Shown here: positions 2,274 to 58,600 of the stretch, piece after piece | Position numbering within the stretch: the stretch's first letter is position 1 | How the letters are laid out: each line of letters starts with the position of its first letter | Notes under the pieces: generated by a model | Told to the model about the DNA's origin: nothing | Databases searched by the model: none | Seen by the model: the letters and a program-made list of their open reading frames with translations, nothing else | Position numbers and translations under genes: made by a program | NCBI GenBank assembly: GCA_023144005.1 | Contig: JAGLGN010000020.1 | Coordinates: 10,941 to 74,940, forward strand | DNA length: 64,000 nucleotides | Source of the DNA: a bacterium | GTDB taxonomy: Bacteria > AUK180 | Direction: 5' to 3'

Positions 2274-2276
2274 TTT

Positions 2277-36865: not shown

Positions 36866-38227
36866 TTATTTAAGAAGCTCCTTTATTAGGCCTTTGACTT
36901 CCGGACTGGCGTTCTTTTTCAATTTGATAGTACCGGAGGTTTCTATTCGTGATGTCTCGACATCCACTATCTTTGCCCGTATATAATACATATTGTTTAT
37001 TAATGATATCTTGCCGATGACCATCTTGTTCACGGCAAGTATTTTACCTACTTCTACCGCGCATTCGGCTGAAACACAACCGGTTTTCTGAAACTCGACT
37101 TCATCCATTATCACTTTTAACGCGCTTCTTTCTATTACGGTGTATTTGCCGGTATCAAGGAGTTCGTCGCTGATCATATCCTCTATTACATCGCTGTAAC
37201 TTTCCGGAACCTCAGGTGCCTCAAATTCCATTATGGCGATCGAGATCATCTTTTTCGGTACTTCCTCTGCAAAAGATCTCTTTTTCTCCTTTTTGGGTTT
37301 TGATACATATTTTCTTTCAGGCATTGAAAAATCAAGGCCTGCTGAAATAAAGTGAAACCCTGTGAGATCTCCCATAGCAAAGGTATAGTCCACTTGATAG
37401 TTAGCATACATTACTCCAATACCAGCGCTTAAGCCCGAAGCCAGCTCATTTCTGTCAAGCTGATAGGCAGCACGCAGGGAAATGATATTATTAATGATGT
37501 ATTCCGCTCCAAGGCCGAATTTCATCGGTGAATCCGCCGGACCCAGGAAATATGTGCCAGCGGCGTTTATCTTCAGCGTACCGTCCAGAAAGTCCTTGCC
37601 CACACTGAGTCCAAGCCGTCCCGGCGTCATTGAGTCATCCCCTGAAGAGATAGCAATGATATCATTCAATGATAATCCCACCTTGAGAATGTCAAGTGCA
37701 TACTCCATTCCCATGGAGAGGTAGGCATAGGAGAACTTCTCCTCCGCAATATCCCCTGTTTCGGGTAATGTCTGGGACAATAATGAAAAACTGATCCCGG
37801 CCGTAAGCGCCGGCATGATCTTTCTTACATATCCCGCTCTTATTATGCTATCTCCGGTAAGAGAAGCGTTTTCATCGAGGATCTCTCCAAATTCATCTAC
37901 CGCGATATAATCAGGATTCGCGATCATCTGATAAGAGACAAAAGCGAAATTGTCCTCTCCAATGGTCATTGCAAGTGAAGTCTGATTATGAGCCCTGCCG
38001 CTGAATACACCGGGGAAATATGAAAATCTCAACGAGAACTGATCTTTGATCCTCGCGGCAGAGGCACAATTAAAGCTCAGATAAGCCAAGGGCCTGTCTG
38101 AAGTTATCCCGCCCGGAAGCGCGAGCGTCAAGCCGTCAACGGGAGTGAACATTTCGGAATACCCGAGATCACCTGCGGAAGCGAATACGCATAGAATAAC
38201 GGCACATGATAATATCATCCGCTTCAT
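36866..38227 (-). CDS. Outer-membrane protein: N-terminal predicted beta-barrel plus a C-terminal ~120-aa periplasmic alpha/beta module (CsgG/LpoB/TolB-N-like)
   Basis: Signal peptide. A K-rich linker (KPKKEKKRSF) follows the barrel. The C-terminal module has ISIAIMEFEA...GCVSAECAVEVGKILAVNKMVIGKI. Lies downstream of the LVIVD T9SS cargo gene. Confidence 0.4.
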   Translation of the reverse strand: MKRMILSCAVILCVFASAGDLGYSEMFTPVDGLTLALPGGITSDRPLAYLSFNCASAARIKDQFSLRFSYFPGVFSGRAHNQTSLAMTIGEDNFAFVSYQMIANPDYIAVDEFGEILDENASLTGDSIIRAGYVRKIMPALTAGISFSLLSQTLPETGDIAEEKFSYAYLSMGMEYALDILKVGLSLNDIIAISSGDDSMTPGRLGLSVGKDFLDGTLKINAAGTYFLGPADSPMKFGLGAEYIINNIISLRAAYQLDRNELASGLSAGIGVMYANYQVDYTFAMGDLTGFHFISAGLDFSMPERKYVSKPKKEKKRSFAEEVPKKMISIAIMEFEAPEVPESYSDVIEDMISDELLDTGKYTVIERSALKVIMDEVEFQKTGCVSAECAVEVGKILAVNKMVIGKISLINNMYYIRAKIVDVETSRIETSGTIKLKKNASPEVKGLIKELLK

Positions 38228-38230
38228 CTT

Positions 38231-41200
38231 TTACTCCTCGCCTCTTCTGAAATACACGGTCAGCACTATTGCTTCAGAACCGTCCACTGGACGGACCACA
38301 AGGAAATACACACCGGAGAGCAATTTATTACCTGACTCGTCTTCGGCTATATTCAACAGCATAGGCCCGTTTTCGGCAGATTCCCAGCTCATTAACTCTG
38401 AACCTCCCGCATCATATAGAGAAAGACCGTCGTCAGCCGCAAGATCGGTTACGCGGATAGTTCCCGTTGTGGGATTGGGGATCACGATGCATTGGTCATA
38501 TGTTTTAAAAGCGGTAAAATCACAATCGATAATTCCCGCGGAAAGATCAGTATATGTTCTGAATGCCGGGGTGTAGCTATAACCGGGAGCTGCGACCGAA
38601 ACCGTATATGTCTCTCCGGCATCAAGACCGGTGAATGTGAAAACACCCAGAATATTTGTCGAGACATTCATTTCCGCGCCACCTGTGACGGTGACAATTA
38701 GATCCGAAATGACGGAATCCGACAATTCATCGGTAACTTTTCCCTGTATGTCCCACTTATCGACCTGACCGGTGAAATCCGCATTTGATACGGATGAGGA
38801 AAGCTCGGTATAATTATGTGAGGCAGGGGTGAAAGTATAATGCGTGAGTGAAATAGTAACACTGTATGTCTCACCGCCGGGAAGATCGTCAAATCGATAG
38901 TACCCGGTGGCAGAAGTTAACAAGGATCCTGTAGAAAATCCCGACAGATCCACGCTTGCAGAAGAAATGGGATCACCCACACCATCCTCAACAATACCGG
39001 ATATGGTCCACTTGTCGTAAGCAGCCGTGAAATCGTTGGCTTCTGAATTATTGCTGAGATCAGGGACCGTTCTGGATGCCGGGACAAATGAATAATTTGT
39101 AAGTGAAGGAGTTATCGTATATGGGGACCCCGCAGGAAGATCACTGACAATGTAATATCCTGAGGCGTTCGTAGTCGTCGGCGTATCTGTAGTACCGTCT
39201 GAAACCGTTACAGTTACACCGGAAAGAGGCGAACTGTCTTCGGTGATGGTGCCGTCGAGGTACCATGTATTGATCACTGCGACATAGTCATCATCCTGGT
39301 TCGCGCTCGTATCCGAAAATGTCCTGGAAACCGGATCAAAAGTATAATGTGTCTTTGACAGTGTAACGGTATAAGTGGCATGGACAGGAAGGCCGGTGAA
39401 TGAAAAATTCCCGGAAGCATTTGTTACAGTGGTTCCGGTCGAATCACCCGAAAGGTCTGCAGTCACCCCTTCCAGAGGTGTGCTCATCGAATATCCGTCC
39501 CAAACGGTACCAGCGATGTTCATCGTCAACAGAGTCGCGTCAAATGGAGGGAAGATTAAATGATTTGTAATAAGATCGGAAATTTCCACTTCCGTTGGCG
39601 AAAACGAATACTGTAGATGAGAAGGTGTAAAGGTATAAGTGCCGCCCGCAGACAGATTTTCAAAAATGAAATATCCTGCTCCATCGGTTATTCTGCTTCC
39701 AGTGGAATCTCCTGTAAGATTAACGGCTATACCGGAAAATGGCGATCCATCAAGCTCTACATTACCTTCTACTTGGTAAAGGTGAAGCGTTCCTGTAAAA
39801 TCCTGATTCGTCATATCCCCGGAAAGATCGGGAAGTGTCCGTGAGGAGGGCGCAAAACCGTAATAAAGAGGATCAGGAGTAATAGTAAATGTTCCGCCCT
39901 GAAGAAGATTTGCGAACTCATAATAACCCGAAGCGTCAGTAATAGTGTTTCCCGTGGAATCTCCGCTTAGGGAAACCGAAACACCCTCAAGAGCAACTAC
40001 CATTGAATCCGCTATCGAGCCCGAGATCGTTGCGACGGGATCGGAAAGGGTACAGTCAAGGATGAAATACCCTCCCAGTTTGTCGCCTACAAAAATATAT
40101 TCCGAGTCGGCGTAGATGCAGTACGCCGAACCTGTAGTTTCATAATAACCCACTTCGGAAGGAGATGTGGGGTCAGAAACGTCCAGGATCCTGAGGCCGG
40201 CGGTATTGGCCGCTACATACAAATATCCGTTCTGATACCACACATCCACCGCTTCACCAAGTGTATTGTGGTAGGTTTCCAGAGACGGCGCAGAAGGGGT
40301 GGTGATATCTATTATCGCGACACCCGAATTTCCATCGGCGACAAAGGCATGATTTCCGTAGACTGCAACCCCGTTGGAAACACCGGTTGTATTATAATCT
40401 CCGACCTCAGTAGGTGAATCAGGATTTGAAACATTGAGGACCTTGAGGCCGTCAGCGCCGGAAGCCACATAGGCATAATCATTTACAACATACACATCAT
40501 ATACATACGATGGAACGGTATAAGAGCTCCGTTCCGTAGGAGAATCAGGAGTGGACACATCTATGATCCTCAAGCCGCCGGCCATATCCGCATCATAAAT
40601 ATCTGTTCCGTAGAGAAATATTTTAGTTGCCTCGTCCGGTGTATCGCACACTGCTAGGGCGGTCATTGAAGACGGATTACTGATATTCCAGACCCGGACC
40701 CCACTAATGTAGTCAGCTATATAGAGGTAATTTCCGGAGACGATAACATCCCTGGCATACCATCCGGTCGCCTTACTTTCAAGTACCTCTGGGTTATATG
40801 GGTCGGTAATGTCTACTGAAGTGATCCCCATGGAATCATTGGCAACATACAGATAATTGCCCTGACGCCAGATACCGTAAACATTTCCGGGAACATCAAG
40901 AACCGCTTTTTCAGAAACATTAGAGATATTTGTTACATCAAGAACTGAGAGTCCCCCTCTGCCGGCGGCAACATAGAGGTCGTTTCCGTTTACCGCCACG
41001 CCCCACGAGTAGCCATTCGCGTAAAATTGGTCCTCCTCCTGCATAAGGAACATCGCCATGGAATCATCCCATGTTTGTGAATAGGTCCTTATTCCGCCTG
41101 TATAATCGGCAACGAATGCCTCACTGCTGGAATTGTAAACGACATCTTTTGAGCTACTGGTAGTAAAGAAGTCCTCAACCATTGGGAAGCTGGGCACACT

Positions 41201-41884
41201 CACTATCTTACTCAGTTGGGAACCCGAACAAACCAATACAGGCTCAATACTGGCCGGATCATGTGTAATGCTCACTGCACTGCCTGGTACGGGAACACTA
41301 CCGGAATGAGTAATAGCGTAGGGATCTGAAATATCAAGACAATACATTCCGTCGGGACCGCCTGCCACATACAGCGTATTGGAAGCGAGCGATAGACTGA
41401 CGCCGTATCCTTCCTTAGCGGTATACTCGTCGGTCAGTGTAGGCGTATCGGAAGCGGTCACATCAAAGACCTTGACCCCATTGGCGGCAAAGCCGACATA
41501 GGCATAATTTCCGCTTGCCCAGACTCTCTGCGAGCTGGAAGCATAATATTCTCCCACATATGAGGGATTAAGCCGATCTGTAATATCAAGGACTACCAGA
41601 CCGTCATACAGATCAGTATAATAAAGACGGTTGCCGTCAACATAAACGTCATTTACTCTTTGAGTAGTGTCGTAGTAATTGACAAGCGCAGGATCCGTCG
41701 GAATTGATATATCATAGATACCTATGAATCCGTATGCCGCGGTATAAAGATATGTATCTGAATACGCTACTTTTTTGGGATCGCCTTCGAGCACAAAAGA
41801 TATCAGATCTACATTGGACGAGGCACCAGATACATAAGAAACACTCAGTAACATCAATATAACAAAAATAAATAATCGCTTCAT
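38231..41884 (-). CDS. T9SS-secreted LVIVD-repeat beta-propeller protein (1217 aa) with CarboxypepD_reg-like repeats and a Por-secretion CTD
   Basis: Signal peptide. Repeated ~45-aa units of the LVIVD type (...YDGLVVLDITDRLNPSYVGEY..., GLRILDVSDPTSPSEVGYY..., GVAIIDITTPSAPS...). Then six units of the form ISGSIADS...GVSVSLSGDSTGNTITDASGYYEF. C-terminal ...LLSGVYFLVVRPVDGSEAIVLTVYF. Confidence 0.7.
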   Translation of the reverse strand: MKRLFIFVILMLLSVSYVSGASSNVDLISFVLEGDPKKVAYSDTYLYTAAYGFIGIYDISIPTDPALVNYYDTTQRVNDVYVDGNRLYYTDLYDGLVVLDITDRLNPSYVGEYYASSSQRVWASGNYAYVGFAANGVKVFDVTASDTPTLTDEYTAKEGYGVSLSLASNTLYVAGGPDGMYCLDISDPYAITHSGSVPVPGSAVSITHDPASIEPVLVCSGSQLSKIVSVPSFPMVEDFFTTSSSKDVVYNSSSEAFVADYTGGIRTYSQTWDDSMAMFLMQEEDQFYANGYSWGVAVNGNDLYVAAGRGGLSVLDVTNISNVSEKAVLDVPGNVYGIWRQGNYLYVANDSMGITSVDITDPYNPEVLESKATGWYARDVIVSGNYLYIADYISGVRVWNISNPSSMTALAVCDTPDEATKIFLYGTDIYDADMAGGLRIIDVSTPDSPTERSSYTVPSYVYDVYVVNDYAYVASGADGLKVLNVSNPDSPTEVGDYNTTGVSNGVAVYGNHAFVADGNSGVAIIDITTPSAPSLETYHNTLGEAVDVWYQNGYLYVAANTAGLRILDVSDPTSPSEVGYYETTGSAYCIYADSEYIFVGDKLGGYFILDCTLSDPVATISGSIADSMVVALEGVSVSLSGDSTGNTITDASGYYEFANLLQGGTFTITPDPLYYGFAPSSRTLPDLSGDMTNQDFTGTLHLYQVEGNVELDGSPFSGIAVNLTGDSTGSRITDGAGYFIFENLSAGGTYTFTPSHLQYSFSPTEVEISDLITNHLIFPPFDATLLTMNIAGTVWDGYSMSTPLEGVTADLSGDSTGTTVTNASGNFSFTGLPVHATYTVTLSKTHYTFDPVSRTFSDTSANQDDDYVAVINTWYLDGTITEDSSPLSGVTVTVSDGTTDTPTTTNASGYYIVSDLPAGSPYTITPSLTNYSFVPASRTVPDLSNNSEANDFTAAYDKWTISGIVEDGVGDPISSASVDLSGFSTGSLLTSATGYYRFDDLPGGETYSVTISLTHYTFTPASHNYTELSSSVSNADFTGQVDKWDIQGKVTDELSDSVISDLIVTVTGGAEMNVSTNILGVFTFTGLDAGETYTVSVAAPGYSYTPAFRTYTDLSAGIIDCDFTAFKTYDQCIVIPNPTTGTIRVTDLAADDGLSLYDAGGSELMSWESAENGPMLLNIAEDESGNKLLSGVYFLVVRPVDGSEAIVLTVYFRRGEE

Positions 41885-45218: not shown

Positions 45219-45566
45219 CTACTTAGTTCCGACAAATATGGTTTTCTTGATCGGGGTTGGAGCTTTTACGACTAGAACCCGCAATACATCATTGCTCTCA
45301 TTGTACCAGCAGTGCACGATATCCTTCGGACTTTCTATTAAGGTATCCTTCGTGACTTCAATCTTCTCATCGCCGACCTCAACGATCCCCACACCTTCAA
45401 GTACATAGAACGCTACATCAACAGGCGTGATATGACGCTTCAATGACTGCCCGGGTTTCAAGGTGATGATTGTTATCATCGCCGTTTCCTTTTTGTACAG
45501 ATTGCGGGCGTCCACATCATGTGCATTTTCCATAATTCCAACTTCAGACAGCTTCTTCGTTATCAT
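45219..45566 (-). CDS. Cupin-domain protein
   Basis: 115 aa. ...ITIITLKPGQSLKRHITPVDVAFYVLEGVGIVEVGDEKIEV... matches the two-motif cupin beta-barrel pattern. A tandem TTATCAG x3 lies immediately upstream. Confidence 0.5.
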   Translation of the reverse strand: MITKKLSEVGIMENAHDVDARNLYKKETAMITIITLKPGQSLKRHITPVDVAFYVLEGVGIVEVGDEKIEVTKDTLIESPKDIVHCWYNESNDVLRVLVVKAPTPIKKTIFVGTK

Positions 45567-45600
45567 AGTTTTTCTCCTTATTATCAGTTATCAGTTATCA

Positions 45601-45716
45601 GGGACGTTGGTGAAGAGTGTGAAGAGTTTGAAGGTATTCAGAAAACAATATCCCCATAATTCCTATACTTATATAATATGGACTAAGCCAACTCTTCACA
45701 CTCTTCACCACCGTCC
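45601..45716. repeat. MITE-/REP-like element: 27-bp near-perfect inverted repeat (GGACG[T/G]TGGTGAAGAGTGTGAAGAGTT) around a ~60-nt loop
   Basis: Arms at 45601-45628 and 45690-45716 differ by 1 mismatch. Sits between the PP-loop gene stop and the cupin gene start. A 15/17-nt direct copy of the arm end (TTCTTCACCACCGTCCC) lies at 46784-46800, at the other end of the PP-loop gene. Confidence 0.55.
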
Positions 45717-46793
45717 TTAACTTTTAGTAAGATCCGAGAAAGTCAATCCAAGCTTTTTCAGAGTGTGTTTCATTACCTTTCTCGGAACAATGGCATTACC
45801 GATAAATAGTTTTGCCATGGCAAGCTGAACACGCCACGAAAAGCGGTTCTCCATACCCTTGCGGATCTTGAAACTGAATGAAGGGAGATGAGAATTATAC
45901 CCCAGATTTTTGTAATCCCTGTATATCATCAGCCAGTTCAATTTGCAATTCGTCACGAGCTGGCTCGAATTACCTTTGCTCAGAAGTCCACTGTCTTTCA
46001 ACTCCTGTCTGATCTTATCTGGAGAGTATTCAGGAAATACATGGAACGGCAGAAAGACCTCGGGAATGTCATCATCCTTCGTATCGGCACCATTCCAGAA
46101 TGTTTCAAGCTCGGGTCCTGTAAAGTCCTCTTTTTTCAGTAGTTCATCCGGAAACCAGTCGGATCTTAGCCGCGTATCAGCTATCTTGTAAAAATAATAT
46201 TCGATCTGATCAGGAGAATAACCGAGAATGATCATCGGGACCTTCTCTTCAACAGCGGTCTTCAGCAGGGCACTTTGCCAAATCACGGTACAGACCCTGC
46301 AAATACGGTCAACCGAATTCTTCTCATACTCCGATGTAAGAAGTTTACGATACACTTTCAAAGAGACCTGAACATGGTCTTTGAGCATACGATGATCTAT
46401 GGGAAGCAGTTCCTTTATTCTCTCTATATTCTTGAGGGCAACATCCGATTCCAGTCCATTGTCCACAGTTACGGCAAGTATCCTGAGATCACTGTTATCA
46501 AGCAGGAATTTCATAAGATAAGTACTGTCCTTTCCCCCGCTGTAAGCAAGTATACAATCGTATTTCCCCGACCCCTTCACATCCTTGAGCTTCTTCAGGA
46601 ATTCTGCGTAAAGCCGGTCTTTCTCTTCATATTGCTTTCGGACCTGAGGGTCCTTCAATACACCGAAATGGCTCTCTCCGGAACAAAATGAACATCTTCC
46701 GTCTTTATTGATCCGGACCTCCTCGATCGCGTCAACTGCCAGGCAGCTCTTACATCTTCTCATTATTCTACTCCTTCTCCATTTCTTCACCAC
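45717..46793 (-). CDS. PP-loop ATP-pyrophosphatase with N-terminal zinc ribbon (N-acetyl-sugar amidotransferase WbuX/PseA-like)
   Basis: Zinc ribbon CKSCLAVD...CSFCSG. PP-loop motif ILAYSGGKDSTYL. A second CRVC pair. The ~358-aa length fits the TIGR03573-type family, but the assignment is tentative. GTG start in the ORF track; an ATG lies 30 nt inside. Confidence 0.5.
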   Translation of the reverse strand: MVKKWRRSRIMRRCKSCLAVDAIEEVRINKDGRCSFCSGESHFGVLKDPQVRKQYEEKDRLYAEFLKKLKDVKGSGKYDCILAYSGGKDSTYLMKFLLDNSDLRILAVTVDNGLESDVALKNIERIKELLPIDHRMLKDHVQVSLKVYRKLLTSEYEKNSVDRICRVCTVIWQSALLKTAVEEKVPMIILGYSPDQIEYYFYKIADTRLRSDWFPDELLKKEDFTGPELETFWNGADTKDDDIPEVFLPFHVFPEYSPDKIRQELKDSGLLSKGNSSQLVTNCKLNWLMIYRDYKNLGYNSHLPSFSFKIRKGMENRFSWRVQLAMAKLFIGNAIVPRKVMKHTLKKLGLTFSDLTKS

Positions 46794-47754
46794 CGTCCCT
46801 AATTCCTTCTTCGGTAATAAAGGCAGTGATATTCTCCACAGGCACTATATCAAAGGCAGGATTATATACATTCGCGTTTTCAGGGACCATTTGCCTGTTT
46901 CCCGAGTAACGGATCTCTTCCTCTCTTCTGATCTCGATCTTAATATCAGCTCCCGACGGGCATTTATCATCAAATGTCGATAATGGCGCGGCAACATAGA
47001 ACGGTATATGGTGATATTTGGCAAGTACCGAAAGCGGATAGGACCCTATCTTGTTCGCTGCATCGCCATTGGCGGCGATGCGGTCAGCGCCGATTATGAC
47101 CAGATCCACTTTTCCCGCCGCCATTAGCGACCCCGCCATATTATCACAGATAACTGTATTGGGGATACCCTTTTCGCTAAGCTCCCACGATGTCAGGCGG
47201 GCACCCTGCAGCAGCGGTCTGGTCTCATCGACCCAAACATGAAGTTTCTTGCCGTCTGAATGCGAAAAGAATATCGGCGACAGCGCCGTGCCGTGATCCC
47301 CCGTTGCAAGCGATCCCGCATTGCAATGTGTAAGTACATTGGCACCCTCCGGTATCAGATCCCTTCCGTTGAGCCCTATATTTTCACATCTCTTTATATC
47401 ATCACGCTGAATAAAAAGAGCCTCTTTCAAAAAGGCATCGGTCCTATGATCTTTCTCCAGGAGCGTATAGAATCTCTCTACCGCCCAAGCAAGATTCACC
47501 GCAGTCGGACGCGCCGCGGCAATATCCTTCATTGCTTTTCTGAGTTCTTCAATATCAACGATCTCTTTAGATGCGAGATAACAGCCGAAAGCACCTGCGA
47601 TGCCAAGAGCGGGCGCGCCTCTGACCGCAAGCGTCTTAATGGCATCTATCATCTGTCTATGATCTTTTATCTCAGTGATGACCTTCTCTGAAGGCAATCT
47701 GCGCTGGTCAATTATCACAATTTTTCCTTCCGCGTAATCGATCGGCCTTACCAT
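46768..47754 (-). CDS. mtnA: S-methyl-5-thioribose-1-phosphate isomerase-like (eIF-2B-related MtnA/R15P isomerase family)
   Basis: N-terminal MVRPIDYAEGKIVIIDQRRLP and ...VRGAPALGIAGAFGCYLAS are typical of MtnA/eIF2B-like isomerases. 328 aa. Confidence 0.7.
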   Translation of the reverse strand: MVRPIDYAEGKIVIIDQRRLPSEKVITEIKDHRQMIDAIKTLAVRGAPALGIAGAFGCYLASKEIVDIEELRKAMKDIAAARPTAVNLAWAVERFYTLLEKDHRTDAFLKEALFIQRDDIKRCENIGLNGRDLIPEGANVLTHCNAGSLATGDHGTALSPIFFSHSDGKKLHVWVDETRPLLQGARLTSWELSEKGIPNTVICDNMAGSLMAAGKVDLVIIGADRIAANGDAANKIGSYPLSVLAKYHHIPFYVAAPLSTFDDKCPSGADIKIEIRREEEIRYSGNRQMVPENANVYNPAFDIVPVENITAFITEEGIRDGGEEMEKE

Positions 47755-48656
47755 CTGACTCCCCTTTTCATTCTCTTCACCATATATCCGGGCGATATCT
47801 TGATCTTCCTCTGAACAAAGATCCAGAAATGCACTCTTTCAAACATATTAAGATTTCGGTTCATTCTGAATATATGCCTGAAAAATCCATTATCCACTCG
47901 GTATTCTTTCAAATTTTCGTATAATGTCTCAGTGATATCAAGATCACGCCGGAATCCCATTTCTGAAAGCAACTCTCTGTCCGCTTGAGAAAATATCCCC
48001 TCATTTTTCATCAGCCCCCATTCAAGGATGTGATATACACGGTTCACATAATAATGATAGATTAGATGCAATGCCGCCAAAGCACCGGGCGACTCCAGCA
48101 ACTTCTGCTCCATATCTGTAGCGATCTCAAATAATCGCCAATGCAATTCGATCTGAAGCTTCATACCGCTTTTATTGCCTGAAAGGGTGATATGCGACCT
48201 TCCTTTTCTTTTTTCACCGCTGACGGATCCACTTGGAATAAACCCGTCGCTCTTTAATTTCATCAATAACGGGTCAATATCCTCCGGGGGGCATATCAGG
48301 TCAAGATCGGACATAAAGCGCATTCCGGAACGACCAGCATAGACCTTTCTAAGCAGAGAACCGCCCTTAAACGCCCTGACATTGGAGAAATCCTCGGCTA
48401 TCACATCAAGCATCTCCGAGATAATGGTGTTTCTCAGTAAGTTCACATTGTATTCATTCTCAAGGTAGGAGTACAATCGCGGACTGTCTTTCAGAAGAAT
48501 TCTGCCATCCTTGATATTTTGGAAAGCGATACCGCCGGTTTTATGAAATTCCATCATCTTCATGACCCCGATACCATCCTTTACCCTTAATTGTTCTCTT
48601 TCGCGTGGCAGGATCAGGCGGAGAAAATCACTCTCATAGTCTTTCCAGGAATTCAT
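47748..48656 (-). CDS. Pol-beta-superfamily nucleotidyltransferase (uncharacterised NTase family)
   Basis: FKGGSLLRKVYAGRSGMRFMSDLDLI matches the hG[GS]x9-13DhD NTase active-site pattern. 302 aa. 7-nt overlap with mtnA. Confidence 0.5.
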   Translation of the reverse strand: MNSWKDYESDFLRLILPREREQLRVKDGIGVMKMMEFHKTGGIAFQNIKDGRILLKDSPRLYSYLENEYNVNLLRNTIISEMLDVIAEDFSNVRAFKGGSLLRKVYAGRSGMRFMSDLDLICPPEDIDPLLMKLKSDGFIPSGSVSGEKRKGRSHITLSGNKSGMKLQIELHWRLFEIATDMEQKLLESPGALAALHLIYHYYVNRVYHILEWGLMKNEGIFSQADRELLSEMGFRRDLDITETLYENLKEYRVDNGFFRHIFRMNRNLNMFERVHFWIFVQRKIKISPGYMVKRMKRGVRW

Positions 48657-49437
48657 CTATATCCTTGACCGTCCTCCATTTAAATCGCATTGTCGACGCG
48701 AATGCACAGGGAAGCATTTCAATCCCCTCGGAGAAGTCCAGGGATGTATAGAACTCAAATGGGTGTATTATTGATTCCAGAGGCAGATCTTGCCCCCTTC
48801 TTGGCATTATAAGATGCAGGCTGCTGTCCTTGAACACCTCAACTTTTTTCGGACATTTCTCAAAAAGACAGATATCGCCGCCCATGATCTCCGAATACAG
48901 CGGTTGGACACACGGGTGATATTTCTGCGTCAGATAGAGGTCTCTCGGAATATATGAAAATCCTTCTGCTCCAATGAGAAGGTATTCGTCGGTGAAATAC
49001 TCAGCCCCTGATCTTATCATTCGCGCAGAAACCGTACTTTTACCGGAGCCGCTCAGCCCGCCGATCGCGAAAAACTTGTCTTTATACTTCAAAAGCGCTG
49101 AATGCAGGGCAAAAAACCTTTCTTTCAACCGTAGAGTTATATGATAACGGATCCAATTAGCGATTATCAGCTCCCTGTCAAAATCCAATTTCCCCGAATA
49201 GTATACATAATTAGCGTCTGAACTCTGATACAGCTCCATACCCATTATGGAAAAAAACCGACCGGCGAAACGCTCGGGGCGGCCATGGATAAAGAGGAGT
49301 GCGCCTTTATGATATGAGGGAATGCCTTCAGGGAAATTGCTTTTTACGGCAGAAACAAAACCACGGGGCCCCTGTATGGAAACAGGGACATTCAGAAGTT
49401 CAAAACCATAGTATTCTAATGCTTTAGCCATAACCAC
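48634..49437 (-). CDS. HPr-kinase C-terminal-domain-like P-loop kinase
   Basis: FFAIGGLSGSGKSTVSARMIRSGAEYFTDEY parallels the HprK Walker A region ([25 protein letters not shown]). 23-nt overlap with the NTase gene. Confidence 0.55.
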   Translation of the reverse strand: MVMAKALEYYGFELLNVPVSIQGPRGFVSAVKSNFPEGIPSYHKGALLFIHGRPERFAGRFFSIMGMELYQSSDANYVYYSGKLDFDRELIIANWIRYHITLRLKERFFALHSALLKYKDKFFAIGGLSGSGKSTVSARMIRSGAEYFTDEYLLIGAEGFSYIPRDLYLTQKYHPCVQPLYSEIMGGDICLFEKCPKKVEVFKDSSLHLIMPRRGQDLPLESIIHPFEFYTSLDFSEGIEMLPCAFASTMRFKWRTVKDIDEFLERL

Positions 49438-50954
49438 ACCAGTCCTAATAACGCGATTATCATCGCGGGAAGGGTCGAGAAGGGGTGAACACTATTTCGG
49501 GGAAACTTCTTCTTCTCGCCCTCACGGGAAAATTTCCGAAGAATTGTTTGGTATTTCTCTTCATTGAATCCCGAGTTAAGCTCCTCTATAAGCGGCGAGA
49601 GCGCGAAATACTTTCTCTTGACAGTAAAGGCGGTATTATTTCTGACACATTCCATCTCCACTTCGATCTTATCCTCGCGCGGCGTGAAGGAAAAGCCATT
49701 TTCTAATTTTCTCGCTTCCCCGCCGGAGATCTTGATATTCCTGATCTCCATATCAGATGAAATGAATACCTCTTCCCCTATATGAGGGATCACTTGTGAA
49801 AGTTCCACTCTGCGGTCCATTTTTAATTGAGTGACGAATACCTCAAGAGCCATTGTGAGTTCTTCCAGCAATGCTGAATCGGTATTTTTGATCTCATCCA
49901 CATGAAAGCCGGTCTTTGAGAAATAATAAAAATGATCGTACTTTCCGAAGATATCAAGGCCGGCAAGAGTGAATTCGCTCTTTATCTTCATATCTCCGCC
50001 GGAAACACAAATGGCAGACCTATGAGTTTCTGCCAAACCCGACATTCCTATGTGCATGACGGGAATTCTTGATCTCATTGCTGCGGGAAGATCGTAATAG
50101 ATGATCCCATCAGCGTTCTTGGGAGCTGCCTTGCCGATATATGTCGGCAGAGGTTCGCAGCCCAGATACTTCAATGTTCTGGAAACTGTACCGATATCCG
50201 CAGAGGGATATCTATAGACAATAACGACCTCGGGTTTAGCTTTGAGAACAATGATGTCCCTGTTCGCACCGTCATCGCCCGAAACTTCGTCTCCGGTATC
50301 CAGAAATACCTGAAGATTATATGTACCCGGAGCAAGCGGCCGCAATTTCAGATCACGCAGGTTCATGCCCTCAATAAGGTTCCAACTGCCCGTCTCGAGC
50401 ACCGCGCCGTCCAGATAGGATCTGTATGTGACCTCCTTATCTTCTTTTGAAAAGATGCTTATGATGACCGGGGCCATCGCATCATATATCATGCTTCCCG
50501 GCGAAAGTGAAAAAACTGTAATAGAGTTCTTCATCACAGCGAAATTTTTCTCGGGTATCAATTTCACAGGGAAGTTCCCATTATAAAGCACTTGATCAGT
50601 AAAATTAAAATCTGAATTGTATGAGACCTTTTTCCCGGACAATCCCGAATACAGACATAGGGTTATCAGGTCGGAATTGATCGGCGAACTTCCCCTCATT
50701 ATACCCTTGAATGTCTGGATCTGCCCATCTTCTATGACCTTGGATGATCTCATCCGATCCTTGTATCTGCTCATTGAATATGAATTATCGACGATCTCCA
50801 ACGCTTCTCCGGAGAAGGATCTGCTGATAATATAGAAATTGAAGAAAAGCATGGCAAGGATGATGAACGGGATCAAAGCGGGCAAACTCCGGATGTTTCT
50901 CCTGTGTGATATGAGGTAATATGTGATTACAAGCAGGAGGAATATTAGAAACAT
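49416..50954 (-). CDS. Membrane protein with von Willebrand factor A (vWA/BatA-like) domain
   Basis: N-terminal TM helices. MIDAS-like EIVDNSYSM (DxSxS). C-terminal TM (AMIIALLGLVWLWL). 512 aa. Confidence 0.5.
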   Translation of the reverse strand: MFLIFLLLVITYYLISHRRNIRSLPALIPFIILAMLFFNFYIISRSFSGEALEIVDNSYSMSRYKDRMRSSKVIEDGQIQTFKGIMRGSSPINSDLITLCLYSGLSGKKVSYNSDFNFTDQVLYNGNFPVKLIPEKNFAVMKNSITVFSLSPGSMIYDAMAPVIISIFSKEDKEVTYRSYLDGAVLETGSWNLIEGMNLRDLKLRPLAPGTYNLQVFLDTGDEVSGDDGANRDIIVLKAKPEVVIVYRYPSADIGTVSRTLKYLGCEPLPTYIGKAAPKNADGIIYYDLPAAMRSRIPVMHIGMSGLAETHRSAICVSGGDMKIKSEFTLAGLDIFGKYDHFYYFSKTGFHVDEIKNTDSALLEELTMALEVFVTQLKMDRRVELSQVIPHIGEEVFISSDMEIRNIKISGGEARKLENGFSFTPREDKIEVEMECVRNNTAFTVKRKYFALSPLIEELNSGFNEEKYQTILRKFSREGEKKKFPRNSVHPFSTLPAMIIALLGLVWLWLKH

Positions 50955-52009
50955 TACTCTTTCAGTTTAAGCACGCTTTTTAATATGATGGCTGCATTTA
51001 ATGCGAAATCCTGAAGTAAAACCTCGTCATCTCTGGAGAACTTATATTTCTCTACTGATTCCAGGTTGAGAACACCGATCACCTTAGCATCAATAATAAG
51101 CGGGGCGGCCATTTCCGAGTTCATCTTCGAATCCGCTTCAGAAATGTATCTCTTGTCATCCCTGACATTATTGATCCGAATTACTCTTTTCTCTTTTGCC
51201 GCCAAGCCGGTAACTCCGCTTCCAAACGGTATTTTGGTCGCCTTCACGAATTGGTCACTTGTTCCGTGCGCAGAAAAAATATCGAGACTGTCCTCCTTCT
51301 CATTGACCAGAAGGATCGCTGCGGATTCCGCGTTAAATATTTCGATGAGCTTCTTTACGATGAGGTCGATAACTCTTTTGGGTTCTAGATTAAGCAGCAG
51401 AAGACGGTCTATCCGGCGGAGATCTTCCAGTTCTTTCAACCTTTTCTTTTCTTTCTGATGCATCAAAGCGTTCTGAAGTATGAGCTTATAGAAGGGTATC
51501 ATGATCTCGTAAAGGCGAAGGTCATGTTCATCAAAATCCTGTCCGTCAAATCTGTCCGCGACGAAAAGATAGGCAATAACATCATTTTGAAGCATTATGG
51601 GTTCGAAGATACCGGAAAAGATATTGAAATCTGAAAACAATTTATTGAATACGGGATAATCCTTGATATTCTCCGGTGAAATGAGAAATCTCTTATTCTT
51701 CTGGAAAAGTTTTTTTATGCCTGCATTTCTTTCGGTAAAATGGGTGAATTCATTCTTGTCAATACCGAAAGTATACAGAGGCAGAAAGAGCTCTTTCTTA
51801 TCATCAAAATGATAGATAGCCGCTTTGCCGGCTCGAATAAGATGCATGACACTCGTTGCGATCCCCCATGTGGTGTCCAGAAAATTTTCAAAGGATTTCG
51901 GCAGAAGGGAATTGATCTCCTCCAATATGGCGACGATCTCCCGGGTATTGATCCTCTCTTCAAGGTCTTTTATATTAAGATTAAAAAGTTCCTTGAAGAA
52001 ATTTTTCAT
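50954..52009 (-). CDS. Tandem GAF-domain protein (no output domain)
   Basis: Two GAF-like halves. The second has ...FGSGVTGLAAKEKRVIRINNVRDDKRY...MAAPLIIDAKVIGVLNLES. 351 aa. Confidence 0.6.
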   Translation of the reverse strand: MKNFFKELFNLNIKDLEERINTREIVAILEEINSLLPKSFENFLDTTWGIATSVMHLIRAGKAAIYHFDDKKELFLPLYTFGIDKNEFTHFTERNAGIKKLFQKNKRFLISPENIKDYPVFNKLFSDFNIFSGIFEPIMLQNDVIAYLFVADRFDGQDFDEHDLRLYEIMIPFYKLILQNALMHQKEKKRLKELEDLRRIDRLLLLNLEPKRVIDLIVKKLIEIFNAESAAILLVNEKEDSLDIFSAHGTSDQFVKATKIPFGSGVTGLAAKEKRVIRINNVRDDKRYISEADSKMNSEMAAPLIIDAKVIGVLNLESVEKYKFSRDDEVLLQDFALNAAIILKSVLKLKE

Positions 52010-52347
52010 TTTACCGCTTCCACTCCTGATTCCCCTGTTCTGATCCTGACAGCATCTTCAACATTCTCGACCCAGATCTTACCATCGCCCATACGGCCTG
52101 TTTGCAGAAATTCCTGCAATTCCAAAATAATATCCTCAACTTCTTCATCAAGGACAAGGGTCTCCATTTTCATCTTTGGAAGAAGGTTTATCTTGAATTC
52201 TTTCCCTGAAATGAGCTCTTTATGGCCATATTGACGGCCGAACCCCCTAACTTCGTTGAAGGTCGCGCCTTTTATCTTAGTACCTTTAATGAATTCCAAT
52301 AATTCCAATTCATCCCTCCTTTTGAATATTACAGTAACCTTTTTCAT
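52006..52347 (-). CDS. Nitrogen-regulatory PII (GlnB/GlnK)-family signal-transduction protein
   Basis: 113 aa. The T-loop RGFGRQYGHKEL, LPKMKMETLV and TGRMGDGKIWV...VRIRTGE align to the PII consensus (GFGRQKGH...LPKVK.E.VV...TG..GDGKIFV...RIRTGE). First gene of the operon, with a 4-nt overlap to the GAF gene. Confidence 0.75.
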   Translation of the reverse strand: MKKVTVIFKRRDELELLEFIKGTKIKGATFNEVRGFGRQYGHKELISGKEFKINLLPKMKMETLVLDEEVEDIILELQEFLQTGRMGDGKIWVENVEDAVRIRTGESGVEAVK

Positions 52348-52402: not shown

Positions 52403-52621
52403 AGTGTTCTGATTCATGAAATAGAGGCTAGAGGTTCGAGGTTGGTGAAGGGAAGATTGTTCAAAAGTTCAAGGTTAAGGTAAAATCTCTTTTTACTCTA
52501 TCTTATAATTGTCAACTGTCAATTGTGTATAATCATCCTTTAGTTTCCCACTTGTCACTTGTGCTCTTGTCACTTGTGCTCCTATCAACCATTGTCATCG
52601 TATTTATGAATCAAAACACTG
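52403..52621. mobile_element. MITE-like element (second copy of the TIR family that disrupts the GNAT gene), with internal word-repeat modules
   Basis: Ends AGTGTTCTGATTCATGAAATA (52403-52423) and CCATTGTCATCGTATTTATGAATCAAAACACTG (52589-52621) are inverted and match the ends of the 12634-12902 element. Sits precisely between two divergent predicted promoters. Confidence 0.45.
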
Positions 52622-52665: not shown

Positions 52666-55600
52666 ATGGGGCAGAAAGAGGAACTTCAGATCTATTTGAA
52701 CCGAGTTCAAAGCAAGGTAGCCGGGGAATCCGATTATCTTAATGCGATCCAGATATTCGCGGATCTCAAAAATTTTCCAAGGGTTATCACATTATCACAG
52801 CAGGGATTGGAGAATTTTCCGGATGAAGGGATATTCCATTACTGGTACGCCTTCGCTTCCTTTTACCTTAAGAAGTTCGAAGCCGCGTTCACAAGTGTCA
52901 ATCTCGCGGTGAACAACAATACTGAACATCTGGATTCTATTCTGCTCGGATACAGGATATCTATCGAGTCCTCTGATCCCGACAACGCCTTGATCTTTTT
53001 GAAATTAGGCGCGGATCGTTTCCCCGACGAAAGCGAAATGCATCAGACCATATTTGATTTTTTTGATAATAACGGTGAATTCGTTTCCAATCACGTCAAT
53101 CTTATTACATCGGTTTATGCCAACGGAGAAAAACGGCTGGGAAAATTCCTTCTTGACACCTTCTACTCCGGCAAGATCACCACTGAACAGGCACTTGATG
53201 TATATATCGAGAATTTCTCCCAAAAAAGCGATGACAAAGACTTCTCGAGATTCGTCTGTAGTATCATCATAAAGGATGAGAGGACGGATAAACCCGCGTT
53301 ATCGGTTCTGCAGGGTGTTTATGACAGCGGCAATAAATCAAAGGCCGTGGTCGGATATCTCTCGGATGTCTCTGCTGCCAAGGGCGCTTGGGGAGATGAG
53401 AATCAGATACTTTATGAACATGCTGTCGAACTGAACTGCGCTACTTACTCCGTTTTCAAACTTCTGGCGAATAAATATATCTTACTGCAGCTCAAAGATG
53501 AAAATTCCCTTGATGTCATTTTTCAGTATTTCCTCTTTGAACCGGACAATAAAGACACCATAACATATCTGATCCCCTTTGTTCTGAAGAAGAAAACATA
53601 CACCGAGGATGAAAAGAATTTCCTGAAGATCGCATTTCGGCTCTTTCCCGATAATTTTGATATCTTCGCGAAGCTTGTCGAGAATATGCTCTTTGATGTC
53701 AACGAAGTCATTGACAATCTGACATTTCTCCAGAGGTATATAGAGGAATTCCCCCAGTCAGAAGCTGCCATAAAACTACTTGGCTCGGCCTATCTGAAAT
53801 TAGGAAGAAAGGACTCCGAGGCGCTTTTCATCTATGAAAAATTCGTAAGGTTCAATTCGGATAGCCTTGAGTTGATCTCTATCCTTACCGAATACTATCT
53901 CTCCGAGAACCGCCGCAGCCGATTGGCGATAATCATCTATGAGAAGGCGTTCCAAATGGGGCTTACTTCCAAAGGGCTTTTCGGAATACTCGCCCTTTAT
54001 TACCTTGACAATCAATCCATTACAGACAGCAACATACCGATCTTCATCAGCGTTTTCAACAATTTAAGAAAGGATCCCCAACCCTATTCCAATTTTCTGA
54101 ATACATTGTCCGGGGCGATCCTGAAGAAAAAGATCACTATCACGGAGAATGAGTTCTTCTTCGAATCCCTGAAAGACATTATCAAGATCCTTCAGCCGCA
54201 GGAGGATATATTCTATTCCGCATTCGTAAAACTGGGCATTTCACTCCATAAGATCGACAATGACTCATTTGAGATCTACAAAAGGCTGATCGCGAAGTTC
54301 AAGGCCTCTAAGAAATTCCTCATGCTTCTTTTCGATGCCTATTCCTCGCGTAATGTCGTGGATGAAGAGGGACGCTCCGTTATGGAAGCGATCTATGAGA
54401 AACTCTCTGAATCGGACAAGCAAAAGGCAACGCTTCTTCTATCCCAGTATTACATGGATAACAAGATAAAAGACGATTTTGCGGGCGGTATTATTTCCAA
54501 AGCGAATTCTCTTATTAAAGATGGTGTTAAACTTGAAGGGAATCTCGAAAAACTGGTACAGTACGCGGTAAAGAACGAGAAAAAGGATAGCGAGACCTTA
54601 GAGCTTTACTTCAGGTACCTTCAGATCAATCAGGAGAATCCTGCGGTGTTCAGATCAGCATGTGAGCTAATTGTGGATAAGGCGATCTTTGAAAAGAAAT
54701 TCCTTTCGATCATGAAGAAGGGAATGGAGCTCTTTGATGACTGGAGAGAACTGTTCAATCATTATGCGGTCGCCTTGGCGAAGAACAAGATCCGCGAATC
54801 GGATTCTTATCCAATCTGGGAAAGATTCATTCTCTCCGGGAACAAGGACGACTCCATCGTAATCGAACTCCTGTCACATTATATCAATAAAGGCACATTG
54901 GACAGAAAAGCAGAGAGAGTATTTTCTTTTGCCATGGGCATCGGATATAAGAACGCGGAGATACTTCTTCAATACTCCCGCATCCTTGCAAAGGACGGAA
55001 ATTATAATAAACTTATCAATGTCATCAGCGATCTGATAAAATTCGACATCAAGGAAGTGGAAGATATCAAGTTCATAGCGGATACATTGCTATTTTATGC
55101 CAAATTTGATGTCCTGGAGAAATTTCTCGGTAAATACTCAGACAAATCCGAATTCATCCTTCGCTATAAATTAAGAAATCTCTTTTATTCGAATAAGCTG
55201 GCGGATAATGAAGAATGCCTGGCACGTTTTGTCTCAAAATACAAGATCAAGGACAATAACGCCGATATCTACGAATTCTACGGCGACTTTTATTTCTACG
55301 AAAAACGTGACCTTAAGAAAGCCATTCACGGATACAGTGAGTATTTGAAAATGTCGCCCAATGACGCGCTGATCCTTTATAAAGCCACCATTTGTGTCCT
55401 GGAGATAGGAGATACCTACTCCGCCCTGAAGTATGTCAAGAAGCTGCTGCTTTTCAGAGAACATGATATTGAAGCTCAGAAGATTGCGGCGAATATACAT
55501 TTCAAGCTGGGGCAATACCCCGAAGCATCGGGCTTTTATAAGAGGATCATATCGGTTGGATACAAGGATACCGAGATACTGAAGAATTACGCATTAGCGC

Positions 55601-58600
55601 TTTTCTTCTCACAGCAGTATTACTCCGCCATTGACCTCTTCAGAGAGATCCTCACCGACGACCCGAATAATCAGGAACTCCTTCTTAACCTTGCATATGC
55701 CTATACCTATATTGATTTCAAGGAAGAAGCCGAAGATACACTGAGAAAGATCATTGACAATAACCCGCAGAATAAAGAAGCGCTCTTCGCGCTTTTCGCC
55801 ATATACCTTGAAGATGTAAGAGCTGATGAACATGCCGAGGGGCTCTTCAATCTCGTATTGAAAATGGACCCCGAAAATCTCGATGCCTTAAAAATGCTTT
55901 CAATGATCTACGGAAAGCTCGGCCGAAATGATGAGCGGGCAATAAGCATTTATGTCAAGATCCTGGATTACGGAGAACCTCCCCCGGAAATAATCAAGAT
56001 ACTGGCGAATAAGCTCAATGAAGAAGGCTCCGGACTGCATGGACAGTTCAGGATCAAGATATTCTCCAGGGCCGTCGAGTTCTTCCCTTCCAATGAGAAG
56101 TACTGGGTCTCTCTGATAGATCTGATCTCCGAAGAATTGGAATTAGAACCCTTTACAAAGATACTTGAAGCCGCATATGAAAAGAAGATCAGAATATCTG
56201 TCTGCGCGGAAAAACTCGCGAAACTGGCCTATGACAAGGGCGAAATTGACAAGGCCTTGATCTATGCGAAGACCGTGCTGGCGCATAATCCGTATAAGAG
56301 CGAAATATATAACCTGGTTGGCGAGATACTGATCGAAAAAGGCTCATTGGAAGAAGCAAAGGATGTATTGAATAATGCCTTGATATATGACTCGGGAAAT
56401 TTCTACGCTTATTTGAACTCAGCCAAGGTCATGCATTTGATGAAGAATTTCCCCCTCGCTCTTAAATATCTGGAACGATCACTTAATATAAACAAGTACT
56501 ATCTTCCGGGAATACTCCTCTACGCGGAAATTTCCGTGGAAAGGAATATTAATCTTGACAATGCGAAGAACGCGCTCAAATTCGTCAAAGATATCTATCA
56601 GTCAAATTGGGAAATATCCTACTGGCTGGCCGTGATCAACAATTTAAAGGGAGATTCAGAACTTGCTTTGATGCAGATCGACGAAGCTCTCGGTTTTGAA
56701 TTGAACCTGGAATCAGTTCTACTGAAGGCGGAAATTCTGAAGCAGGACGGAAAATACCAGGAAGCTTTGGATTTTCTAAATCAACAGAAAGATGAACTTA
56801 ACGCGCCTGAACTTTTCAACGCTTTGGGGCAATTGTACTTCGATTTGGACGATATAGAATCATCAAAGGAAGCTTATTCACTGGCGGTATCGATCGATCC
56901 TAATTTTATTCAAACCCAGATAGCTTTAGCGAAACTGCATTATTCTGTGGATAAGGACCTCGAGACCGCGAAGGTAGAATTCATGAATATTCTGGAATTC
57001 AACGCCGAAAATGAAGAGGCGCAGAGATTTTTGGGCAAGATCCATTACCGCAAGAAAGAATATAAAGAAGCATTAAAAGTTTATATGCGGGTTTTTGAAT
57101 ATCTGGATTATGAGGATCTGAAATACCTCACTTCGATATACTTCATGAGAGGGCTTTTTGATGAAGTCCTTGAATTAGCGGCGAATCTTATACAGCAGAG
57201 AAGTGACGACCTGGATGTTGTCACCATTCTTTTTGAAACCTACTGCGCATTGCAGCTCTATGACAAGGCCATTGACGCTTTCCAGACCTTGAGGATAAAT
57301 GATTCTGAAAGAGCTCAGGAGTATTTCGAGAAGTATTTCGGAATTCTTATTTCTTCAGGAAATTACAAGAAACTCCGTGAAGAATTGCAGGAACTCATTA
57401 AGGATCAGAGGTACGGGGCAAAGTATGCCGAGTACTTCTTCTTTCTTGAATACATACTCTTTAACACCAAATTCGAGGATATCAAATTCCTTCTGAAGTT
57501 CCTTCTCGACAAAAAACAGGATAAGATAGATTTCAAGAAGAACAGAGACCTTATGCTTTTCCACATCCTTCTTCAGGAAAACGCCTTCTCTTCGATCGAT
57601 ACTTTCATTCATATCTTTAACAAAGAAGATGATACCATTCGTTTCCTTACAGCCATGTATTATGTCAAAAGCGGCAAGGAAAAGGGCGCGTTGAATCTAT
57701 TGAAGAGTTTTCACGAATATTGGTCAAGGCCTTATTTCACTCCATTCCTAGGCTACTCAAAAAAGATATTCGTACACCTTAAGGAAAGGTACAGGTTCAA
57801 CCGGATCTGGGAAATGCTGGCTAATCAGGATATCAGAGATGAGAAAGATTATTGGTACAAGATCTTTCTTAAATACGCTGAAGAAAAATTAGGCGAAAAA
57901 TTCCTTGAGAAGAACAAGATCGACAAGGGACTGCATACATTACACTCCCGATTGGAAAGATATGAGCTGGCAAAGGGGAAAAAGGACTCTGATCTGAACT
58001 CGGATCTCTTTTTGAAGATGTATCAGTTGTATTTCTTCCTGGAGGGGGATTTCAAGGAATGTCAGAAGATCGCCAAGAAGAATGATCAGCTACCGGGACT
58101 CCTGTTCTCAAAGGACCTCTTTACCGAACTTGCCAAGAAAAAAACTGACAATAAGAAGATCATGACATTGGTTTCCAAAGAGCTCCTCATCGATGAGGTT
58201 CCCTATTTCATTGACTTCCTGTATGAATACAAGATACCTGAACTCGCTAAAATGACGATACTTGACGCTGACAAGAAAAAATTGACAGAACATCACTCTG
58301 AGATCCTCTACAATTTATATGAAAAGGGCCTTCTGGAGCCCAATAAAGAAATAGAGGCGATATTATCCAACTCAAGATCGTGCAATGCGCGCTTCCTCTT
58401 GCGCAACGGAAGATATGAAGAGGCCTATAAGACAGTCATGGAGATGAATTATCTGGAGTTCACATCCCCGGGTAATTGCAATAGCGTCATGGAAGCAATG
58501 AGGGTCAATGAGGATTACGATCAATTGCTGACCTATCGCTTTAGATATATCGACCCTTCATTCGCCAATGACAATACCAATCTGTATTCCGCTATCGCCC

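Follow-up and report, generated by a model that had tools for sequence, protein, structure and literature searches.

A kinase–nucleotidyltransferase pair, usually joined to mtnA, is the conserved unit within a seven-gene bacterial operon

Why would a bacterium pack genes for a PII protein, a GAF protein, a membrane protein, a P-loop kinase, a Pol-beta nucleotidyltransferase (NTase), the isomerase MtnA and a PP-loop enzyme into a single run? The question is raised by a 64,000-nucleotide (nt) stretch of DNA from an AUK180 bacterium (GenBank assembly GCA_023144005.1, contig JAGLGN010000020.1, positions 10,941 to 74,940 of the forward strand), which we call the window. Seven consecutive open reading frames (ORFs) lie there on the minus strand at 45717-52347, as an original prediction made from the sequence alone had stated. 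That prediction took the seven genes to be one functional unit and named what would refute it, the genes being found scattered in related genomes. We found this to be so for four of the seven genes, whereas the other three stay linked in distant relatives. The conserved unit is a kinase/NTase pair, usually with mtnA, and not the seven-gene run. We regard it as quite probable that the run is a patchwork operon around this small conserved core, and we put the account as a whole, in which the architecture is joined to a mechanism, at about even.

The conserved core and its changing surroundings

The core consists, on the minus strand, of the genes for an HPrK/PEPCK-type P-loop kinase (48634-49437, 265-267 amino acids (aa)), an NTase of the NTP_transf_5 family (PF14907; 47748-48656, 302 aa) and MtnA (46768-47754, 328 aa), in that order. 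A scan of a genome collection with the kinase alignment gave five loci, to which look-ups added L001 and L061, and all loci were read by tblastn, Pfam and direct translation. Wherever the sequence continues, in the window group and in four other lineages, the 3' end of the kinase gene and the start of the NTase gene share 17-23 nt, so that the two form a translationally coupled pair. This overlap is 23 nt in L061, whose NTase is 80% identical to that of the window, and 20, 17 and 17 nt in L009, L010 and L008, each ~30% identical to the window; in L011, also at ~30% identity, the contig ends in the kinase gene. The NTase gene in turn ends within the start of mtnA in the window group, in L061 (7 nt), in L009 (26 nt) and in L010 (7 nt). 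The linkage of an HPrK-like kinase, an NTase and MtnA, which the original prediction had proposed to check, is therefore kept with overlapping junctions in the window group and in these three lineages. L008 has no mtnA within 164 nt, where a convergent 51-aa ORF is found. The kinase and the NTase diverge in parallel, both at ~30% identity to the window and at 39% and 48%, respectively, between L008 and L010.

The flanks of the core, in contrast, differ in every lineage. Upstream of the kinase gene, L009 has a CsgG-like gene, L008 one for a CreD-like membrane protein, L010 a divergent Fur gene and L011 a gene for a 365-aa protein; downstream of mtnA, the gene in L009 is YggS-like. In the window, this upstream position is taken on the minus strand by the PII gene (52006-52347, 113 aa), which is the first of the run, the GAF gene (50954-52009, 351 aa) and the membrane-protein gene (49416-50954, 512 aa). 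Only L001 and L007, contigs of the same species, have these three beside the kinase gene, and all three are absent from the four distant loci L008-L011; the 512-aa protein also lacks similarity to the CreD-like membrane protein of L008. They are additions upstream of the core in the window lineage only. It is because the NTase follows the kinase wherever the sequence continues while the flanks differ, with the PII, GAF and 512-aa genes confined to one species, that we take the pair, usually with mtnA, as the conserved unit.

At the other end of the run, the PP-loop gene (45717-46793, minus strand; longest ORF of 358 aa) differs between strains. It is carried by seven other contigs (L054-L060) of the same sample series, whereas L007, from a metagenome-assembled genome (MAG) that is ~97% identical to the window (proteins 94-100%), passes from mtnA to a hairpin element and then to a cupin gene, with no PP-loop gene; both alleles therefore exist. 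When the window was compared with L007 by blastn, both breakpoints fell on a 19-20-nt sequence of which L007 has one copy and the window two. The upstream copy of this 19-nt direct repeat, TTAGGGACGGTGGTGAAGA, lies at 46784-46802 (minus strand) in the 3' end of mtnA and forms the left edge of the variable segment; the downstream copy, TTAAGGACGGTGGTGAAGA, lies at 45702-45720 (minus strand) in the 5' arm of the hairpin, and 0.03 matches would be expected by chance. The segment bounded in this way, 1082 bp long, holds the PP-loop ORF together with its ribosome-binding site. We regard the PP-loop gene as strain-variable, accessory and dispensable. The original prediction had counted an amidotransferase encoded by it among the members of the pathway, which does not agree with its absence from L007 and with the location of its homologues elsewhere. 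That the gene comes and goes between near-identical strains also means that gene overlap by itself is no proof of a functional unit.

The junctions of the run are as tight as first described: given the longest-ORF starts, neighbouring genes overlap by 4, 1, 22, 23, 7 and 26 nt. On sibling contigs, gene callers start the kinase at ATG 49431, which gives 265 aa and a 16-nt overlap, and the PP-loop gene at ATG 46763, which gives 348 aa and a 4-nt gap past the mtnA stop. At good spacing before ATG 46763 stands GGAGAAGGAG, a ribosome-binding site. The true starts of both genes probably make them shorter than their longest ORFs, and the last junction is more likely this 4-nt gap from ATG 46763 than an overlap. 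Terminator-like sites within the run are not in excess (4 found versus 6.4 expected from shuffled sequence), and an Rfam scan of the run returned no family at threshold, riboswitches included.

The kinase family itself is small. A full HMMER scan of 1.84 billion representatives (E<=1e-10) placed it in only four clusters (P0001 and P0124-P0126) and found three further full-length relatives at 31-34% identity. Word-indexed searches with the kinase and the NTase returned same-species matches (for the kinase, a 98% copy) plus one match at 80%. A metagenome scan with the kinase alignment yielded no true member of the family; its matches were generic HPrK-like P-loop proteins, which served as an outgroup. 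Of 42 such generic metagenomic loci, none carries mtnA; in at least six, a PF14907-like ORF comes directly after the kinase.

The core proteins and their relatives

The domain labels of the original prediction were borne out by Pfam and NCBIfam for the PII, GAF, NTP_transf_5, IF-2B/MtnA and PP-loop proteins, and not for the von Willebrand factor A (vWA) label, which we return to below. For the kinase, the label 'HPrK-like' stands in part: the catalytic core and the TIGR and Protein Data Bank (PDB) profile matches are consistent with it and weak, and the Pfam and TIGR cut-offs are not reached. The protein matched TIGR04355 at 30.9 bits and TIGR04352 at 26.4 bits (E=1e-7 over ~60 residues), far below the cut-off of 200, and gave no match to PF07475 (Hpr_kinase_C) even at E<=10, the only hits being generic AAA at E>0.04. 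Compared with the PDB, the family profile found the HPrK/P structure 1KO7 at E=0.003. The invariant residues H112, G127-x-S-x-S-G-K133 and D150-E151 align with SLHG...GDSGIGKS...ADD of 1KO7, so that the HG, the Walker A motif (GxSGxGKS/T) and the acidic pair of the HPrK catalytic core are all present. A Foldseek search with the kinase model (pLDDT, a predicted local confidence score, of 60) ranked HPrK/P first and PEPCK next (E=4e-5, TM ~0.3). PF05402 (PqqD) is absent from all operon proteins, and the kinase N-terminus gave no alignment with the PqqD portion of a protein in which PqqD and kinase are fused.

The label 'Pol-beta nucleotidyltransferase' holds without such reserve. The NTase scored 53.6 bits to PF14907 against a gathering score of 31.2, matching profile positions 8-148 of 249, and its L008 orthologue covers positions 3-248. 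The catalytic motif of the fold (hG[GS], ~10-20 residues, then DxD) is kept: KG...MSDxD, RSHI and E..H are invariant in five sequences, with K97-G98 followed by S116-D117-x-D119. The family profile found no relative in the PDB.

The assignment of MtnA to the IF-2B/MtnA family (the PF01008-type check of the original prediction) was confirmed. It scored 395.5 bits to TIGR00512 against an equivalog cut-off of 279, versus 154 bits to the sister model TIGR00511 (ribose-1,5-bisphosphate isomerase), below that model's cut-off of 314, and it gave 302 and 293 bits to the solved structures 1T9K and 2YRF/2YVK. The motifs THCNAGSLAT (CNAGS) and GADRIAANGDAANKIG align with the same motifs in these structures; we take the Cys and Asp within them to be the catalytic residues of MtnA. 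By sequence, the window protein is a canonical S-methyl-5-thioribose-1-phosphate isomerase.

Which known systems does the core resemble? An HPrK-type kinase gene with a gene for an NTase of Pol-beta fold recalls the tailoring pairs of lasso peptides, which are peptides made on ribosomes and modified after their translation (RiPPs); the likeness is at the level of the pair. In lasso peptide clusters, an HPr-kinase homologue (PadeK/PsmK) phosphorylates the C-terminal Ser of the precursor (PMC8498205), and the nucleotidyltransferase PsmN is needed to add one or two hexoses to the phosphate (PMC11912497). The original prediction had noted this likeness together with the lack of a cyclase, a protease and a precursor, and both points hold. 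Unlike lasso clusters, the operon and its surroundings have no precursor, B1/B2 protease, C cyclase, RiPP recognition element (RRE) or PqqD domain, or transporter: PF00733, PF13471 and PF05402 were not found in the seven operon proteins or in 22 other window ORFs scanned, and the intergenic regions of the window contain no plausible precursor-like small ORF. The window kinase is also only remotely similar to its relatives, in the P-loop core alone, and mtnA is attached to the window pair, an arrangement for which we found no report in the literature.

Beside the NTase gene of L008 lies the convergent 51-aa ORF mentioned above (MKKKWSKPEIMMININAKPPPPCNPAKPQTERCDATNPQYLAPCKGGIPLS; L008:10863-11015, minus strand of the locus), which overlaps the NTase stop. 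The ORF comes with a strong AGGAG ribosome-binding site, its leader is PqqA-like (WxKPxh), and it ends in a Ser, the residue that lasso kinases phosphorylate. Judged from these features, it could be a RiPP precursor and the substrate of the pair in that lineage. Neither the window nor any of the other loci has a homologue of it, and the L008 contig stops at this point.

A second likeness is to the TIGR04352/TIGR04355 cassettes, in which a kinase is followed by a PF14907 NTase in the same order. The P-loop cores align to these HprK-related kinase relatives (hhalign E=7e-11 for the kinase and 1e-5 for the NTase, over the catalytic cores only). Two such loci, L044 and L041, encode either a kinase, a PqqD protein and an NTase, or a PqqD-kinase fusion followed by the NTase, and the L044 cassette lies among sugar-transferase, DegT, epimerase and hexapeptide-transferase genes. 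We take this kinase-PqqD-NTase arrangement to match the NCBIfam 'HprK-related kinase A' cassette, whose PqqD partner is either a separate gene or fused. Unlike the HprK-related kinase A/B cassettes, the window operon has no PqqD and no polysaccharide context, and its NTase is ~300 aa long versus 416-467 aa in those cassettes. The core is thus an HPrK-like kinase/NTase pairing without PqqD and RiPP machinery and with mtnA, found so far in a handful of uncultured bacteria. In the literature, we found neither a description of the TIGR04352 system nor any report that connects MtnA with HPrK-like kinases.

What the core may do

The mechanism that we favour is a tentative one, drawn by analogy and held with low confidence, in which the kinase and then the NTase would act on one site with MtnA tied in. 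On the strength of homology, the kinase would use ATP to phosphorylate a hydroxyl, most likely that of a Ser in a protein or peptide. The NTase would then attach a sugar or a nucleotide-derived group at that position, as PsmK and PsmN do on the lasso C-terminal Ser, and MtnA would do its usual job, in which the ketose-1-phosphate is made from 5-methylthioribose-1-phosphate or from a related 5-deoxypentose-1-phosphate. The conserved coupling to mtnA suggests one of two ties: the modification may draw on or dispose of 5-deoxypentose phosphates derived from S-adenosylmethionine (SAM), or MtnA itself may be the protein target of the pair. We favour this mechanism because the catalytic motifs are intact in all three core proteins and because of the analogy with their relatives and with lasso tailoring. 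Pairs of an HPrK-like kinase and a PF14907 protein are widespread, and they are understood, genetically, in lasso tailoring alone. A pair that lacks peptide machinery and is joined to a salvage isomerase offers a compact three-protein system for working out the chemistry, and the triad may show a tie to how SAM by-products are handled.

Several points weigh against this account. No substrate was found for the pair, there being no PqqD/RRE domain and no precursor-like ORF in the window, and for PsmN, on which the analogy leans, no activity in vitro was obtained (PMC11912497). The structure models are mediocre for the kinase (pLDDT 60) and poorer for the NTase (pLDDT 36, from two sequences). The sample consists of four deep lineages, all uncultured MAGs and perhaps one clade, and in such a sample inherited gene order is not fully separable from selection. 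In L008, the 164 nt past the NTase hold the convergent small ORF and no mtnA start. With regard to the architecture, the PP-loop segment may have been inserted in the window lineage or lost from the L007 lineage by repeat-mediated deletion, as both fit the sequence.

A different reading of the same core, which we consider rather unlikely, is a salvage route in which the P-loop kinase, as a non-orthologous substitute for MtnK/DrdK (the kinases of MTR and 5-deoxyribose), makes the sugar-1-phosphate for MtnA, with the NTase performing an accessory step on the nucleoside or sugar. The triad would in that case be an alternative opening to the salvage of methionine or 5'-deoxynucleosides. MtnA is canonical with its catalytic motifs intact, there is no evident protein or peptide substrate, and, judging from its structural model, the kinase may have the fold of PEPCK, which is a small-molecule kinase. 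Known salvage clusters also place a kinase gene with mtnA, as in mtnK-mtnA-ald2 of the dihydroxyacetone phosphate (DHAP) shunt (PMC10986504, PMC12632272). The window shares with these methionine-salvage/DHAP-shunt clusters (mtnK-mtnA-ald2, mtnKA) a canonical mtnA after a kinase gene in one operon. MtnK has the APH fold, however, whereas the window kinase belongs to the HPrK/PEPCK type, and the characterised HPrK-family relatives all phosphorylate Ser of proteins or peptides. The NTase gene stands between kinase and mtnA; no known salvage step needs a Pol-beta NTase, yet the NTase is the most constant partner of the kinase. Nor do the scanned window ORFs include a nucleosidase, phosphorylase, aldolase or dehydratase gene, and there is no SAM riboswitch, since no Rfam family reached threshold. 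The pair without an adjacent mtnA in L008 also speaks against such a route.

Equally hard to favour, at a similar low probability, is the view that there is no shared function and that the pair and mtnA are adjacent by inherited order in a little-sampled clade. Besides the four deep lineages of unclassified MAGs and the missing mtnA in L008, this view draws on another pair of genes, encoding a large CarboxypepD_reg/beta-propeller surface protein and a ~450-aa CsgG-like protein, which occurs near the triad both in the window (36866-41884) and in L009 (L009:54-3229). In the window this pair lies ~7 kb downstream of the operon and in L009 directly upstream of the kinase, which suggests residual synteny and that the two lineages are related. 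Yet while the surroundings have been reshuffled, the NTase-mtnA overlap stays (7, 7 and 26 nt) at ~30% kinase/NTase identity, which argues against mere inheritance of gene order.

We give somewhat less credence still to a variant in which the triad is a hitherto unrecognised enzyme system that acts on a sugar phosphate or on MtnA, being either a new entry to the salvage of 5'-methylthioadenosine (MTA) or 5'-deoxyadenosine, or a means to control MtnA. If the first were true, the system would replace MtnK or MtnP. If the second were true, it would be a phospho-nucleotidyl control of a salvage isomerase and the first non-RiPP function for the large uncharacterised PF14907 family.

The idea that all seven genes form one signalling-controlled pathway of nucleotide or sugar-phosphate modification or salvage, as originally proposed, now appears very improbable; in such a pathway, PII and GAF would sense ligands and the PP-loop amidotransferase would act on the product. 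The genes share a strand and have overlapping or abutting junctions, terminator-like sites are not in excess, and the arrangement recurs in several same-species assemblies. However, the contigs with the full arrangement are not independent evidence because they all come from the same species, at 93-100% protein identity; the PP-loop gene is absent in L007 and lies elsewhere in other lineages, and the PII, GAF and membrane proteins are not linked to the pair in L008-L011. Signalling control through PII and GAF could at best be specific to the window lineage. A further idea, suggested by GlnD and GlnE, was that the kinase and NTase act on PII. We rejected it as a general explanation because PII is unlinked outside the window species.

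Also highly improbable is a type VII toxin-antitoxin-like or defence pair in which the NTase, as a toxin, would nucleotidylate tRNA or some other target, the kinase would neutralise it by phosphorylation and mtnA would be a bystander: as in AbiE and in TakA/TglT, where a kinase neutralises an AbiEii-like NTase toxin (PMC7205606), the NTase gene is preceded and overlapped by a gene for a possible modifier, and the NTase gave weak PADLOC AbiEii matches (E=6e-6 to 9e-3 over 35-53 residues, the best over 35), but these span only the catalytic motif region that NTases share, the families differ on both sides (PF14907 and not DUF1814/AbiEii; a kinase unrelated to TakA/AbiEi and without a PADLOC match), and the window pair is chromosomal, lies outside any mobile-element or defence-island context, diverges in step in a vertical-looking manner and keeps mtnA, whereas toxin-antitoxin modules are sporadic.

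Accessory proteins, repeats and the rest of the window

Of the proteins encoded upstream of the core, PII matched PF00543 at 78 bits against a gathering score of 25 (E=7e-22), fell below the NCBIfam GlnB/GlnK equivalog cut-offs, and carries the motifs GFGRQ.GH and TGRMGDGKIW of the T-loop and B-loop, with Tyr51 of the T-loop replaced by Phe. The GAF-only protein matched GAF_2 at E=2e-24 in two stretches and GAF at E=1e-18, the domain being strong at the C-terminal end and weaker at the N-terminal end. The 512-aa protein has two hydrophobic stretches near its N-terminus and one near its C-terminus, and it gave no Pfam match at E<=10 and none in NCBIfam, PADLOC or the PDB. It had been labelled vWA; a DxSxS-like DNSYS motif is all that we found for this label, which has no profile or PDB support.

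The PP-loop protein has two CxxC pairs, which form a zinc ribbon, and AYSGGKDST at residues 83-91 of the 358-aa ORF, which contains the SGGxDS signature and aligns with the PP-loop of 8CNZ. The PP-loop and zinc ribbon of its original description are therefore sound. The amidotransferase part is less so: the protein is WbuX-like in its N-terminal half, scoring 98 bits to TIGR03573 (WbuX) against a cut-off of 203 over model positions 1-175 of 344, and its PDB matches are weak and to other PP-loop enzymes, with the N-acetyl sugar amidotransferase 8WEX at E=0.02. Its closest homologue (56% identity) comes from the same assembly as L009, has similar G+C and occupies an unrelated locus, between tilS-ftsH-type genes and an aminotransferase gene that is beside miaB-type, mnmE and yidC-type genes. 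More distant homologues have different, unrelated neighbours, and the family, with ~60 full-length metagenomic members, has no conserved context in the three places examined.

The hairpin element at the operon end (45602-45720, minus strand) is real, as had been claimed: its 27-nt arms (45602-45628 and 45690-45716) are 96% complementary across a 61-nt spacer, and its fold has -55 kcal/mol (z=-7.4). In L007, its 5' arm overlaps the last mtnA codons. No T-run follows it, so it is not a canonical intrinsic terminator. An Rfam search of 45592-45723 gave the plant miRNA precursor MIR529 at 34 bits against a gathering score of 75; we rejected this sub-threshold match, which reflects a generic long-hairpin shape. 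We also rejected the PP-loop segment as an integron cassette: the duplicated part is 19 nt of one hairpin arm and makes no complete 3' attC, the GTTRRRY-like sites agree at only 6 of their 7 positions, and no integrase lies close by.

A Cupin_2 gene (115 aa, 45219-45566) follows mtnA and the hairpin, or, in the window, the PP-loop gene. Rhodospirillum uses a cupin at a step after MtnA in its MTA-isoprenoid shunt. We considered this cupin as a partner of MtnA of the MTXu-5-P (methylthioxylulose 5-phosphate) methylsulfurylase type and rejected it; L009 has the YggS-like gene in that place, the L007 copy is truncated and there is no RuBisCO-like protein.

The MITE-like (miniature inverted-repeat transposable element) sequence at the PII end of the operon also proved real. 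It spans ~218 bp (52403-52620, no strand assigned) between the PII gene and a divergent gene for a 3138-aa TPR protein, and is bounded by ~18-nt terminal inverted repeats, AGTGTTYTGATTCATRAA, which have three matches in the window with none expected. Further element ends lie at 12883-12900 and ~13170-13190 of the window and at L007:13035-13054, and copies occur in L001 and L007. One end in L007 falls inside the cupin gene after codon 92 and leads to the stop KDIVHC*. Because this end interrupts the cupin, the element appears to have been recently mobile and the cupin to be dispensable.

Several other genes of the window merit mention. The 3138-aa TPR-like protein is encoded at 52666-62082, divergent from the operon. 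A seven-gene minus-strand operon at 421-6482, whose two largest products are RnfC-like (Complex1_51K, RnfC_N, Fer4) and RnfD-like, probably encodes an Rnf complex (RnfCDGEAB), judging from the two genes checked. Other unusually large products are a 1331-aa protein with a cyclase domain, AAA_16 and TPR repeats (7530-11525), a 1782-aa Big_13 protein (14200-19548) and a 2723-aa protein that combines Endonuclease_I, clostripain (Peptidase_C11) and many CarboxypepD_reg/SdrD_B repeats (26361-34532). Finally, PCMT-like enzymes (protein-L-isoaspartate O-methyltransferases) tailor some RiPPs, and a 393-aa PCMT protein with a long extension is encoded at 20000-21181, beside a TraB/PrgY/GumN-family gene and 25 kb from the operon.

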